Source: Anaerolineae bacterium (GTDB lineage: Bacteria > Chloroflexota > Anaerolineae > JBHIEC01). From it: 38,440 nucleotides of DNA. Where the stretch lies: positions 1 through 38,440 of the forward strand of contig JBHIEC010000003.1 in assembly GCA_046760425.1 (NCBI GenBank), written 5' to 3'. The position numbers and the translations under genes were made by a program. Shown here piece after piece: positions 1 to 34,957 of this stretch. Under the pieces are notes generated by a model. The model was given only the letters and a program-made list of their open reading frames with translations. It was not told the origin of the DNA and ran no database searches. Position 1 is the first letter of the stretch. Every line of letters starts with the position of its first letter.

Positions 1-1265
1 CCGACGAGATCATTGAGGGGACGGACCACGTGGCCGTGCCCGGCTTCTTCAACGCCCACACCCACGCCCCCATGACCCTGGTGCGGGGCTGGGCTGAGGA
101 CTTGCCCCTGGACCGCTGGTTCAACGAGCGCATCTGGGTGGCTGAATCAGCCCTGGAGGAGGATGACGTCTACTGGGGCGCAGCTCTGGCCGCCTGCGAG
201 ATGATCCGCTCCGGCACCGTGGCCTTCGCCGATCACTACTTCTGGATGGATCGCGTGGCCCAGGCGGTGGAAGAGTCCGGGCTCCGGGCCACCCTGGCCT
301 GGTGCATCTTCGGCCTGGGGGCGGAGCAGGAGATCGGTGGGGCGACCCTGGAGCGGACCGAGGAGTTCGTCCAGCGCTGGCAGGGCGCGGCGGGAGGCCG
401 CATCCGCACCGTGCTGGGCCCCCACGCCCCCTACACCTGCCCGCCGGAGTTCCTGGCCCGCGTGGCCGAGCGGGCCGCTGAGCTGGGCGTGGGCCTCCAC
501 ATCCACCTGGCCGAGTCCCAGGACCAGATGGAGGCCTCCCTGGCCAAACACGGCCTGACCCCCGTGGCTTTCCTCGATAGCCTGGGCCTCTTCGACCAGC
601 CGACCATCGCTGCCCACTGCATCGCCCTGGCCGAGGTCGCAAGCGCTCGCAGGACAACCGTTCGAGCGGTTGGGTCTCCCGAACCCCCTGCGAGCGCTTG
701 CGAGGAGGACATGGCCATCCTGGCGGAGAAGGGGGTGAACGTCGTGCAGTGTCCCAACTGCCACATGAAGCTGGCTATGGGGGTCACGCCGGTGCCGGAG
801 CTCCTGGCCCGGGGGGTCAACGTGGCCCTGGGCACCGACGGCCCGGCCAGCAACGACAACCTGGACATGCTGGAAGAGGCCCGACTGGCGGCCCTCATCC
901 AGAAGCACCGTACCGGCGACGCCACGGCCCTGCCCGGCGACCTCCCCCTGCGGCTGGCGACTCAGAACGGCGCGCAGGCCATGGGCTTCCCCGACAGCGG
1001 TGTCATCGCTCCGGGGAAGGCGGCCGACCTGGTCCTCTTCGACTTCCGCAGGCCGCACCTGCGGCCCCGCCACGACCTGGTGGCCAACCTGCTCCACGCC
1101 GCCAACAGCGCCGACATCAGCCACGTCATCGTGGACGGCCAGTTGCTCCTGCGGGAGGGGGAGCTGCTGACCCTGGACGAGGAGCGGATCCTGTACGAGG
1201 CGGAGCGGCGGGCCTACCGCATGGTGGGGCAGGAGCTGCGGGTGGTGCGGAGGTACAAAACATAA
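1..1265 (+). CDS. mtaD: Amidohydrolase, 5'-methylthioadenosine/SAH deaminase (MtaD/DadD-like); 5' end lies outside the window; carries a 23-aa in-frame insertion
   Basis: PGFFNAHTH (HxH), HIHLAES (HxxE), ALGTDGPASND and GKAADLV motifs. The frame is open from position 3 (DEIIEGTDHVAVPG). Confidence 0.8.
   Translation, partial: DEIIEGTDHVAVPGFFNAHTHAPMTLVRGWAEDLPLDRWFNERIWVAESALEEDDVYWGAALAACEMIRSGTVAFADHYFWMDRVAQAVEESGLRATLAWCIFGLGAEQEIGGATLERTEEFVQRWQGAAGGRIRTVLGPHAPYTCPPEFLARVAERAAELGVGLHIHLAESQDQMEASLAKHGLTPVAFLDSLGLFDQPTIAAHCIALAEVASARRTTVRAVGSPEPPASACEEDMAILAEKGVNVVQCPNCHMKLAMGVTPVPELLARGVNVALGTDGPASNDNLDMLEEARLAALIQKHRTGDATALPGDLPLRLATQNGAQAMGFPDSGVIAPGKAADLVLFDFRRPHLRPRHDLVANLLHAANSADISHVIVDGQLLLREGELLTLDEERILYEAERRAYRMVGQELRVVRRYKT
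637..703. mobile_element. 67-bp palindromic micro-element (MITE/RPE-like) inserted in-frame in the amidohydrolase
   Basis: Perfect 17-bp IR TCGCAAGCGCTCGCAGG (637-653) / CCTGCGAGCGCTTGCGA (687-703), flanked by GG...GG. Homologous copy at 34822-34957. Confidence 0.85.
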
Positions 1266-7423: not shown

Positions 7424-8419
7424 ATGTCTATTGCAAAAGCAACGGCCGTCGCTTATAGCAACATCGCCTTCGTGAAGTTCTGGGGCAAGCGGGATGCGGC
7501 CCTCAACCTGCCCTACAACGATTCCCTGTCCATGAACCTGAGCGCCGCGACGACCACGACCACGGTCATCTTCGATGATACCTTGGCCGAGGATGTGGTT
7601 ATCATTGATGGGCGTGAGGAGAGGGGAGGGAGGAGAGAGCGGGTGGTAGCGCATCTGGATCGGGTGCGGCAGATGGCTGACATTGAGGCGCGAGCCAGGG
7701 TCGTCTCCCGGAATAGCTTCCCCATGGCCACGGGCATCGCCTCCTCGGCCTCGGCTTTCGCCGCCTTGTCCCTGGCGGCCACCAGGGCGGCCGGGCTGGA
7801 TCTGGACGAGGGGGAGCTCTCGCGTCTGGCCCGATTGGGCTCCGGGTCAGCGTGCCGGTCGGTACCGGGTGGCTTCACCTACTGGACAGCCGGCACGTCC
7901 CACGAGACGTCTTTCGCCCGACAGATCGCCCCGCCGGAGCACTGGGACCTGCGGGATGTCATCGCCGTCGTCAGCCAGGCCCCCAAGGCCGTCGGCTCCG
8001 GCGCGGGCCACGCCGCCGCCGAGACCAGTCTCTTCTTTCGAGCGCGGCTGGTGACTCTGCCCCAACGCCTGGCTGAGGTGAAGGATGCCCTGCTGGCGCG
8101 GGACCTCCCGACCTTCGGACGGGCCATCGAAGAGGAGGCCATCTCCCTGCACGTCATCGCCATGACCTCTCGACCGCCCATCTACTACTGGCTGCCGGCT
8201 ACCCTGCAGTTGATCCAGGCGGTGCAAAGCTGGCGGGCCGAGGGGTTAGAAGTGTATTTCACCCTGGACGCCGGCCCCAACGTCCACCTTATCTGCCGGG
8301 CTGGGGATCAGACGGAGGTAGAGAAAAGGCTGACGGCCATGGAGGAGGTACGAGAAGTCATCGTTAACCAGCCGGCGGGCGGGGTGCGCCTGCTGGATGA
8401 GCACCTGTTCGATCCCTGA
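7424..8419 (+). CDS. mvaD: (Di)phosphomevalonate decarboxylase, GHMP family
   Basis: NIAFVKFWGKRD, GIASSASAFAAL, RLGSGSACRS and FTLDAGPNVH motifs. Confidence 0.92.
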   Translation: MSIAKATAVAYSNIAFVKFWGKRDAALNLPYNDSLSMNLSAATTTTTVIFDDTLAEDVVIIDGREERGGRRERVVAHLDRVRQMADIEARARVVSRNSFPMATGIASSASAFAALSLAATRAAGLDLDEGELSRLARLGSGSACRSVPGGFTYWTAGTSHETSFARQIAPPEHWDLRDVIAVVSQAPKAVGSGAGHAAAETSLFFRARLVTLPQRLAEVKDALLARDLPTFGRAIEEEAISLHVIAMTSRPPIYYWLPATLQLIQAVQSWRAEGLEVYFTLDAGPNVHLICRAGDQTEVEKRLTAMEEVREVIVNQPAGGVRLLDEHLFDP

Positions 8420-8600: not shown

Positions 8601-9668
8601 ATGGTCACCACCATTGTGTCTTTCGTGTTCGTCCTCGGCATCTTGATCTTCGTCCATGAGCTGGGCCACTTCCTGGTGGCCAAGAGGGTGCGCATCAAGG
8701 TCGAGGAGTTCGGCTTCGGCTACCCGCCGCGCCTGTTCACCATCGCCAAGATCGGTGAGACGGAGTACACCCTCAACGCCCTCCTGCCCCTGGGTGGGTT
8801 CGTGCGGGTGGTAGACGACGGGGATCCCAACCAACCTGGCAGTTTCGCCAGCAAGGGCAAGCTGGCCCGGGCCAGCTTCCTGGCGGCGGGCCCGACTATG
8901 AACATGCTCCTGGCGGTGGCCCTCTTCGGCGCCATGTTCATGGCTGGCGTTCCCCGCCCCGCAGAGGGGGTGGGGGCAGGCATCTACTGGGTGGAGCCGG
9001 GTTCGCCCGCCGCTCAGGCCGGCCTGCAGGTGGGCGACACCGTCTTGCAGGTTGATGACTTCCCTATCCAAGATCCCAATGACCTCAAAGAATACATCAG
9101 CGACAAGGTGGGGCAGGAGATCAGCCTCACGGTGAGGAGAAGGGGGAAGACCCTCCCCACACCCCTGAAGCTGACCCCCCGTGTCAACCCTCCGGAGGGC
9201 CAGGGGGCTATGGGGGTGCAGTTTGGACCACCTCTGGAGACGATCTCTTATCCCTGGTGGCAGGCGATTGCCATGGGCTTCCGACACACGCTGACGCTGC
9301 TGGCCACCATGCTCGTGGGCCTGGTGCAGATCCTGCGGGGCATGATGGTGCCTGAGGTGGCCGGCCCCATTGGCATCGCCCAGATCACGGGTGAAATCGC
9401 CAAATCCGGTCTGGTGAACCTCATGGAGTTCATTGCCGTCCTGAGCGTCAACCTGGCCATCATCAACCTTCTACCCTTTCCCGCCCTGGACGGAGGGCGT
9501 CTGGTGTTCGTCATCCTGGAGGCCCTGCGAGGTGGGAGGAAGATTGATCCCCAGAAGGAGAAGCTGGTTCACATCATCGGCATGGCCATCATATTGAGCC
9601 TGATGCTGCTGATCTCCTACTTCGATCTCCTGCGGCTCTTCAGTGGCCAATCCCTGTTACCCCGCTGA
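8601..9668 (+). CDS. rseP: RIP metalloprotease RseP (M50, with PDZ domain)
   Basis: HELGH, NLLPFPALDGG and PDZ segment SPAAQAGLQVGD. Confidence 0.93.
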   Translation: MVTTIVSFVFVLGILIFVHELGHFLVAKRVRIKVEEFGFGYPPRLFTIAKIGETEYTLNALLPLGGFVRVVDDGDPNQPGSFASKGKLARASFLAAGPTMNMLLAVALFGAMFMAGVPRPAEGVGAGIYWVEPGSPAAQAGLQVGDTVLQVDDFPIQDPNDLKEYISDKVGQEISLTVRRRGKTLPTPLKLTPRVNPPEGQGAMGVQFGPPLETISYPWWQAIAMGFRHTLTLLATMLVGLVQILRGMMVPEVAGPIGIAQITGEIAKSGLVNLMEFIAVLSVNLAIINLLPFPALDGGRLVFVILEALRGGRKIDPQKEKLVHIIGMAIILSLMLLISYFDLLRLFSGQSLLPR

Positions 9669-15689: not shown

Positions 15690-15754
15690 AAGCCTTGCGA
15701 AGGTTTCTTCCCTAACCAGGCACCTGGGACTGGCGGCCAACCTTCGCAAGGCTT
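15690..15754. repeat. REP-like inverted doublet AAGCCTTGCGAAGGTT...AACCTTCGCAAGGCTT
   Basis: 16-bp perfect IR; same arms as 17729-17763. Confidence 0.8.
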
Positions 15755-17728: not shown

Positions 17729-17763
17729 AAGCCTTGCGAAGGTTTGAGAACCTTCGCAAGGCT
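17729..17763. repeat. REP-like inverted doublet AGCCTTGCGAAGGTT-TGAG-AACCTTCGCAAGGCT
   Basis: 15-bp perfect IR; same family as 15690-15754. Confidence 0.8.
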
Positions 17764-34710: not shown

Positions 34711-34778
34711 TGACAAGCGTGCACCGGGCCTTTCTCCCCCAGCCTGCCATTCGCTCATACGCAGGTGCACGCTTGTCA
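34711..34778. mobile_element. 68-bp palindromic micro-element (same family as 637-703)
   Basis: 15-bp IR TGACAAGCGTGCACC/GGTGCACGCTTGTCA; GA...GA duplication; interrupts a CCCCCGG/CCGGGGG hairpin. Confidence 0.8.
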
Positions 34779-34821: not shown

Positions 34822-34957
34822 TGACAAGCGCTCGCAGGACAACCTATCGAGCCTGCGGTGATCTTGAGCCCTGACAAGCGGTCACGCTCGCCTTAGCTCA
34901 TTTCAGCTCTTAGCTGTGAGCCGCGTGACCGCTTGTCACCCCTGCGAGCGCTTGTCA
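34822..34957. mobile_element. 67-bp palindromic micro-element carrying a nested second copy
   Basis: 17-bp IR TGACAAGCGCTCGCAGG/CCTGCGAGCGCTTGTCA; GA...GA duplication; 136 bp minus the 69-bp nested insert = 67 bp. Confidence 0.85.
34872..34938. mobile_element. 67-bp nested palindromic micro-element
   Basis: 16-bp IR TGACAAGCGGTCACGC/GCGTGACCGCTTGTCA; CC...CC duplication. Confidence 0.85.

Follow-up and report, generated by a model that had tools for sequence, protein, structure and literature searches.

An In-Frame 67-bp Hairpin Element of the MITE Type in a Probable mtaD Gene of a Hydrothermal-Vent Anaerolineae Bacterium

The stretch of DNA analyzed here (the window, 38,440 nucleotides of contig JBHIEC010000003.1) belongs to the metagenome-assembled genome (MAG) of an uncultured hydrothermal-vent Anaerolineae bacterium (GCA_046760425.1, our G000; 2.55 Mb in 350 contigs, 63.6% GC, 75% complete). 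It begins inside a gene for a TRZ/ATZ-type amidohydrolase, probably the methylthioadenosine/S-adenosylhomocysteine (MTA/SAH) deaminase MtaD, and this gene carries a 67-bp palindromic element in frame at positions 637–703. We consider it likely that the element is a non-autonomous hairpin MITE (miniature inverted-repeat transposable element) that inserted at a GG dinucleotide of the mtaD-like gene and is carried there as a tolerated selfish passenger. Element and one GG together make up 69 bp, or 23 codons, with no stop in any frame, so that the gene keeps an open frame and, most likely, is translated through the insert. The read-through product would be an enzyme with 23 extra, probably disordered residues between the strand that ends in His205 and the next helix. 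The insertion is best read as neutral or mildly harmful and not as a functional addition, and it is one of at least a dozen in-frame insertions in the MAG.

A first-pass annotation of the window had described an element of 67 bp whose terminal inverted repeats are perfect over 17 bp, with a GG duplication bringing the total to 23 codons, and all of these features were seen at 635–705. An inverted-repeat finder places the 17-nt arms at 637–653 and 687–703, 100% complementary with 33 nt between them; the termini are of the TCGC type, and the palindrome was assigned to neither strand. By sequence reading, the two copies of the duplicated target dinucleotide lie at 635–636 and 704–705, and window positions 631–710 read ccgaGG-TCGCAAGCGCTCGCAGG...CCTGCGAGCGCTTGCGA-GGagga. 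By rough arithmetic (38,440 positions x 200 spacings x 4^-17), about 5e-4 repeats so perfect over 17 nt would be expected by chance. The 79-nt stretch 631–709 folds into the 17-bp stem and an inner 7-bp hairpin (655–672, with 655–661 pairing to 666–672), which is present in both the RNA fold (-48.7 kcal/mol, z = -6.0, with 0 of 200 shuffles as stable) and the DNA fold (-30.9 kcal/mol, z = -6.9). Across all six frames the element copy holds 0 stop codons. As delimited by the open reading frame (ORF) and by the orthologue and homologue alignments, the 23 extra codons (636–704, + strand) are residues 212–234 of the partial protein, VASARRTTVRAVGSPEPPASACE. The stop-free, in-frame character of the insertion, also part of the earlier description, holds: frame 3–1265 is open and reads ...AAHCIALAE VASARRTTVRAVGSPEPPASAC EEDMAIL..., while excision in silico of the element and one GG gives AAHCIALAEEDMAIL.

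The host gene (3–1265, + strand) has its 5' end cut by the contig start and its stop codon at 1263–1265, and was identified from the ORF, Pfam, NCBIfam, homologues and Foldseek. Pfam Amidohydro_1 (PF01979) matches residues 11–381 (E 6.4e-67), and the best NCBIfam models are equivalogs for TRZ/ATZ hydrolase, 5'-deoxyadenosine deaminase or MTA/SAH deaminase, which match in two stretches and skip residues 212–233. No NCBIfam equivalog cut-off was reached (best 441 versus 609 bits; PRK15493, MTA/SAH deaminase, 262 versus 779), and the homologues of 65–70% identity carry the name MTA/SAH deaminase from a single source, JGI. Because the protein is truncated and interrupted and its scores lie below the cut-offs, the substrate assignment to MtaD stays “probable.” The AlphaFold model (predicted template-modeling score, pTM, 0.89; mean predicted local distance difference test score, pLDDT, 87.5) was matched by Foldseek to the solved MTA and adenosine deaminases 4gbd, 4dyk and 4f0r with TM scores of 0.84–0.86 (0.86 for 4f0r). 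The protein has the amidohydrolase fold with its conserved His/His, His..Glu, His and Asp positions; H19, H21, H166, H168, E171, H205 and D279, which we take to be the catalytic-type positions of amidohydrolases, are invariant across 55 homologues and all present in it. In the model the insert sits between strand 201–205 (IAAHC, with the invariant His205) and helix 230–242, and low confidence within it is limited to residues 212–226 (pLDDT < 50); it is predicted to form an unstructured loop. The catalytic face of a (beta/alpha)8 barrel is built from the loops after its strands. The loop after the AAHC strand foreseen by the first-pass annotation is therefore recovered in the model, but barrel topology would put it on the catalytic face and not on a remote surface loop.

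Relatives of the gene have an empty site. The first-pass annotation expected a clean 23-residue gap in MtaD orthologues, and precisely one such 23-column gap lies at the insert in all 11 orthologues compared, which come from other families within the class (49–74% identity). The 23 residues are likewise missing from nine of nine database homologues, and the alignment to 4f0r breaks at the insert, query residues 1–211 matching chain 52–262 and 236–399 matching chain 264–428. The same peptide was thus found in none of the orthologues and homologues compared. Two relatives, P0002 and P0004, 93% identical over aligned columns, read CIALT-EEDMAIL, with the insert absent; judged from these sequences, the insertion would be younger than the split from relatives 93% identical at the protein level. 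The best homologue in the species-representative collection is 77% identical, and no same-species genome is among its members. Each of three runs (X1, X2 and X3) covers window positions 200–1200 with a single contig that departs from the window at 4 letters, all within 1089–1106, and has 0 gaps; none of the runs listed as containing the stretch is an RNA run. These contigs, 2.7–3.5 kb long and spanning the insertion, come from one vent study that is possibly the MAG's own source, and so represent a second assembler and not an independent sample; at contig level they reproduce the insertion, and the misassembly that the first-pass annotation had allowed for did not appear. The same samples hold diverged, insert-free orthologues: one joins 626 to 704 with 8 other letters between, a net change of -69 bp, and another record has 378 letters where the window has 450. 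Between the host gene and the contig of a co-occurring relative, 14 of the 18 differences listed at 733–843 fall at third codon positions (hand count). Together with the kept invariant residues and the confident model, this gives the host gene an intact look.

The mtaD copy belongs to a large repeat family. The MAG contains 87 strict units, exactly 67 bp long in 71 cases, and a blastn search of it gave 153 family intervals, 119 of them at least 55 bp long. A pattern built from the two ends matched 94 times in the MAG versus 0 for the reversed control pattern, in line with the further genomic copies that had been predicted. Identical 2-bp flanks occur at 68 of the 85 units with enough flank (GG 30, CC 18, GA 10, TC 8, CT 1, CA 1), and the common ones, GG, CC, GA and TC, are all non-palindromic. 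Since one subfamily has both flank types (GG/CC 19, GA/TC 12, in a weak S-Y-G-R target context), the duplicated dinucleotide comes from the target. Only the outer 9 bp, T[G/C][A/G]CAAGCG, are common to all subfamilies; the inner arms differ from one subfamily to another yet remain complementary, which amounts to co-variation, and the interiors are unrelated. The family thus has the marks of a MITE, being small and non-coding, with terminal inverted repeats, target duplication, empty sites and many dispersed copies.

Two further loci of the family lie in the window. An intergenic composite at 34822–34957 (no strand assigned; 136 bp = 67 + 67 + 2) consists of two elements of 67 bp, the outer one interrupted by a nested one of the TGAC type at 34872–34938 that has CC on both sides. 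The gap-free identity of 51/67 that the first-pass annotation gave for this locus stands for the outer element, but only once the nested copy and one CC are removed; the locus as a whole is a nested composite. The other copy, at 34711–34778, is 68 bp long, of the TGAC type, with GA on both sides. Elsewhere in the MAG, a 226-bp element (C206:1900–2125) has the family ends and an AT-rich interior unlike that of any 67-bp unit, and may be a family member that captured another small repeat. A second, unrelated hairpin repeat family is present in the window at 15690–15754 and 17730–17763 (AGCCTTGCGAAGGTT ... AACCTTCGCAAGGCT); it has 16 genome copies with loops of about 4 to more than 50 nt, and the copies listed look intergenic and resemble repetitive extragenic palindromic (REP) sequences or terminators.

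In-frame insertion is a recurrent outcome for this family. Stop-free frames with at least 40 codons on each side run through an element in 48 cases at 38 sites, and Pfam matches were found in 24 of these 48 ORFs. We kept 23, dropping a Cas2 case on C56 whose element lies upstream of the Cas2 domain and probably outside the gene. For 12 of these, the insert either has domain matches to its left and right or is crossed by one: MtaD, DnaA, TruB, ComEC, a GT4 glycosyltransferase, a SpoIID/amidase protein, DnaE, a SpoIIE-type phosphatase, RodZ, an RlmI-like methyltransferase, a GT9 heptosyltransferase (with a double, 136-bp insert) and a DUF123 protein (profile positions 1–58 and 60–94). In the remaining 11 a domain was matched on just one side, and some of their elements may lie upstream of the true start. 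The many in-frame coding copies that had been anticipated are therefore present, and include dnaA and dnaE, which are essential genes. Alignment to solved structures places the DnaE insert between Taq Pol III alpha residues 883 and 887 and the TruB insert between E. coli TruB residues 158 and 168, the TruB site being a composite in which a 66-bp interval abuts a further element end.

A stricter flank test, applied to all 119 intervals and requiring 80 stop-free coding-like codons on each side, found coding sequence on the same strand and in the same frame at 14 intervals, on the same strand in a different frame at 0, and on opposite strands at 4, with 30 intervals qualifying on one side only and 71 on neither. 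By their palindromic ends, the encoded peptides can be grouped into a few classes (xASAR...AASAC[D/E], [S/D]DKRSR...RDRLS, VTSGH...VTACQ and SQALA...LRALAT), and the TGA frame of TGAC-type copies is never used in in-gene copies. Some in-gene copies (Metallophos_2, RodZ, InhA-like, alpha/beta hydrolase) have mismatched arms; decayed arms in open genes indicate that insertions persist there long enough to decay. The GT9 heptosyltransferase gene (C54:670–805, L044) holds two tandem 67-bp units that share a GG (136 bp, 46 codons) in frame and encode a duplicated VASAH..RPALSTGPVS.CE peptide. On C72 (L033), two near-identical copies 341 bp apart (8274–8340 and 8615–8681) lie just upstream of a DUF123 (GIY-YIG-like) gene and in frame inside it, respectively, while the other DUF123 gene, on C204, is uninterrupted.

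At least one match to the two-end pattern was obtained in 14 of 400 other Anaerolineae-class genomes (16 in G037, 4 each in G006 and G154, 2 in G025 and 1 in each of the others), where the single matches are near noise, since the reversed control gives 1 in four genomes. G004, G006 and G025 also carry the closest mtaD orthologues. Four genomes of one family (G037, G154, G184 and G120; f38) contain a related 63–66-bp hairpin family, TCGCAAGCGTTCACGC...GCGTGAACGCTTGCGA, whose interiors are richer in AT; of its 16 copies in G037, two abut at C7:28087–28213. A metagenome scan with a 16-mer of the arm matched at least 118 stretches, and among the 80 loci examined the paired 67-bp form was found in four (L160, L161, L167 and L212), the rest resembling chance single matches. 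Rfam gave no match above threshold, only a generic hairpin (microRNA precursor) at 18–20 bits versus cut-offs of 70–97, and the plasmid collection gave no match to the element. A limited literature search met no account of this family in Chloroflexi, a result that does not show the family to be unpublished. In two other Anaerolineae MAGs, the MtaD orthologues (L093:3001–4416 and L100:3001–4392) carry different in-frame insertions in another loop, after P0002 residue 354, consisting in one of three tandem GAGASP repeats and a hairpin and in the other of two perfect GC-rich hairpins; such insertion into mtaD has thus happened independently.

A search for the mobilizing enzyme was made in the MAG and the metagenome loci. 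The 75%-complete MAG gave no match to the resolvase (PF00239), DDE_3 (PF13358) or TnpB zinc-ribbon (PF07282) profiles. Its three Y1_Tnp genes have no element in their flanks, the nearest copy lying about 1.1 kb away on C182, and its three DDE_Tnp_1 genes are within insertion sequences whose inverted repeats are unrelated. No element lies near the intact DUF123 (C204) and GIY-YIG (C53) genes, and a second DUF123 gene (C72) itself carries an insertion. Among the 80 metagenome loci, no long element with matching ends was seen, far-apart end pairs matching at only 9–15 of 25 positions. As a best guess, movement might involve a 2-bp staggered cut by some transposase, with the hairpin arms as the recognized structure.

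Several points count against a tolerated passenger of transposon origin. By barrel topology, the insert would lie on the catalytic face, six residues past the invariant histidine, and could harm the enzyme's function. In the transcript, the hairpin (-48.7 kcal/mol, with a perfect 17-bp stem) could make ribosomes stall or draw in a double-strand RNase. The interior of the mtaD copy is identical to its nearest family copy at 19 of 33 positions while its arms are perfect; this combination leaves its age unclear, and the open frame could just reflect a recent event. The run comparison was made at contig level, where rare empty alleles of the same strain are invisible, and the label “transposon” is drawn from footprints, the MAG and the metagenome loci having yielded neither an autonomous element nor a transposase with matching ends. 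An alternative is that the insertion is real but damaging, producing a misfolded enzyme, a blocked active-site face or a cleaved or stalled mRNA; the frame would then be open merely owing to the recency of the event and to a length, 69 bp, that cannot shift it. The main reason for keeping this view is the catalytic-face position of the insert, in a beta-to-alpha loop as deduced from the topology; the very stable RNA hairpin and the still perfect arms also speak for it, as does the fact that the 75%-complete MAG showed no other close copy of mtaD, its next match being 40% identical. We nevertheless regard it as unlikely, given that all the catalytic-type invariant residues are kept, the remainder of the AlphaFold model is confident, at least 12 other genes including dnaA and dnaE hold like inserts with open frames, and the decayed arms of some in-gene copies show such insertions to be survivable. 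An assembly artefact, in which a repeat copy was wrongly joined into mtaD, would be in keeping with the fragmentation of the MAG into 350 contigs, with the 18 of 153 family intervals that lie less than 100 bp from a contig end, and with a window that starts inside the gene; it is rendered extremely improbable by both junctions being exact, with matching GG and the frame preserved, and by the three gap-free per-run contigs, even though these stem from one study that may be the source of the MAG.

The opposite view, in which the 23 residues are adaptive (a new loop function such as a binding site or regulation) or the family is shaped for coding DNA, draws on two regularities. Unit plus flank comes to 69 bp in several subfamilies with unrelated interiors, and copies of the TCGC type, free of the terminal TGA that blocks one frame per strand, are over-represented in genes (11 in-gene and 22 elsewhere, versus 8 and 59 for the TGAC type; odds ratio 3.7, p 0.015, with ten mixed and nine other rows dropped and the significance overstated because the copies are kin). 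Yet the elements have 2.71 of 6 frames open, compared with 2.79 for shuffles of their own interiors and 3.72 for 71-mers drawn at random from the genome. The idea that stop codons are specially purged was accordingly rejected, open frames being no more frequent than in the interior shuffles; high G+C content alone accounts for the many stop-free copies. Furthermore, the related family in G037 and G154 is 63–66 bp long and not consistently a multiple of three, the insert in MtaD is predicted to be disordered and is missing from all relatives compared, and the host proteins are unrelated to one another, so that we consider an adaptive role very improbable. A narrower proposal is that the element is “codon-quantized,” 69-bp lineages having been favored since they are able to survive in coding DNA, which makes up much of the genome, and is in this sense adapted to live inside proteins. 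We think this unlikely; if true, the family would keep supplying the essential enzymes of a free-living bacterium with loop insertions of 23 residues. The tolerated, non-autonomous MITE remains the reading that we prefer.

Selfish DNA that sits in frame within proteins has mostly been regarded as peculiar to Rickettsia. The Rickettsia palindromic elements (RPEs) described by Ogata et al. (2000, 2002) are, as summarized in a MITE review (PMC10969869), multi-copy palindromic repeats found in frame in unrelated housekeeping genes, where they add a peptide and leave the protein unbroken; in R. felis, 85 of 728 RPEs are reported to lie in ORFs (PMC1166351). The present family resembles them in placing palindromic repeats in frame in ORFs of unrelated genes, with a comparable ORF share (12 to 23 of 119), and the “RPE-like” label of the first-pass annotation is apt for this behavior. 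It differs in its host, a free-living vent Anaerolineae and not an obligate intracellular alphaproteobacterium, in its length (67 bp, compared with about 150 bp for the RPE as first reported, according to PMC10969869), and in its clear 2-bp flanking duplications and self-nesting. Host and length make sequence membership in the Rickettsia RPE families unlikely.

Other known systems share some of these features. Intragenic REP elements, described as palindromes tagged with GTAG or CGTC (Di Nocera et al. 2013, PMC3733652), are likewise in-gene palindromes, and the hosts here include dnaA, dnaE and a MutL-like gene; but REPs are 20–40 bp long, have a GTAG/CGTC head and are linked to RAYT genes, whereas the element here is 67 bp with TGAC or TCGC heads. 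A REP/REPIN system with RAYT was set aside on account of these heads and of three Y1_Tnp genes that the element does not flank. Prokaryotic MITEs such as Correia/NEMIS, RUP, ERIC and QMITE of Coxiella, as presented in PMC10969869 and PMC5896051, are also small and multi-copy, with terminal inverted repeats, target duplication and occasional in-frame fusion with host ORFs. In contrast to them, no same-ended parent insertion sequence was found here in the MAG, the element falls at the lower end of their range of sizes, and its arms co-vary among subfamilies with only the outer 9 bp fixed. IS607-family serine transposons are reported to use a GG overlap (Boocock and Rice 2013, PMC4058570), which would also leave GG on both sides, and the flanks here are non-palindromic. 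Against this, IS607 elements are described as having no terminal inverted repeats (Chen et al. 2018, PMC6188088), whereas the present ones are long, the 75%-complete MAG has no PF00239 match, and the occurrence of both GG (19) and GA (12) flanks in one subfamily is a better fit to target-derived duplication. An IS607-like crossover is weakened as a candidate by these same three features. Judged by its features, the element can be classed as a MITE, one for which no parent is known; family and lineage are new, the behavior is not.

In a passage of the 2024 MITE review, in-frame insertion into proteins elsewhere is called only “conceivable” (PMC10969869). Here a much smaller element than the RPE behaves likewise in a free-living vent Chloroflexi bacterium, in at least a dozen genes, replication genes among them, and with clean footprints. 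Inserts of this kind break profile matches into pieces and depress family scores, so that automated MAG annotation can be misled by them. The family offers a testable system for the tolerance of proteins to random 23-residue loop insertions and for the coding constraints on element length.

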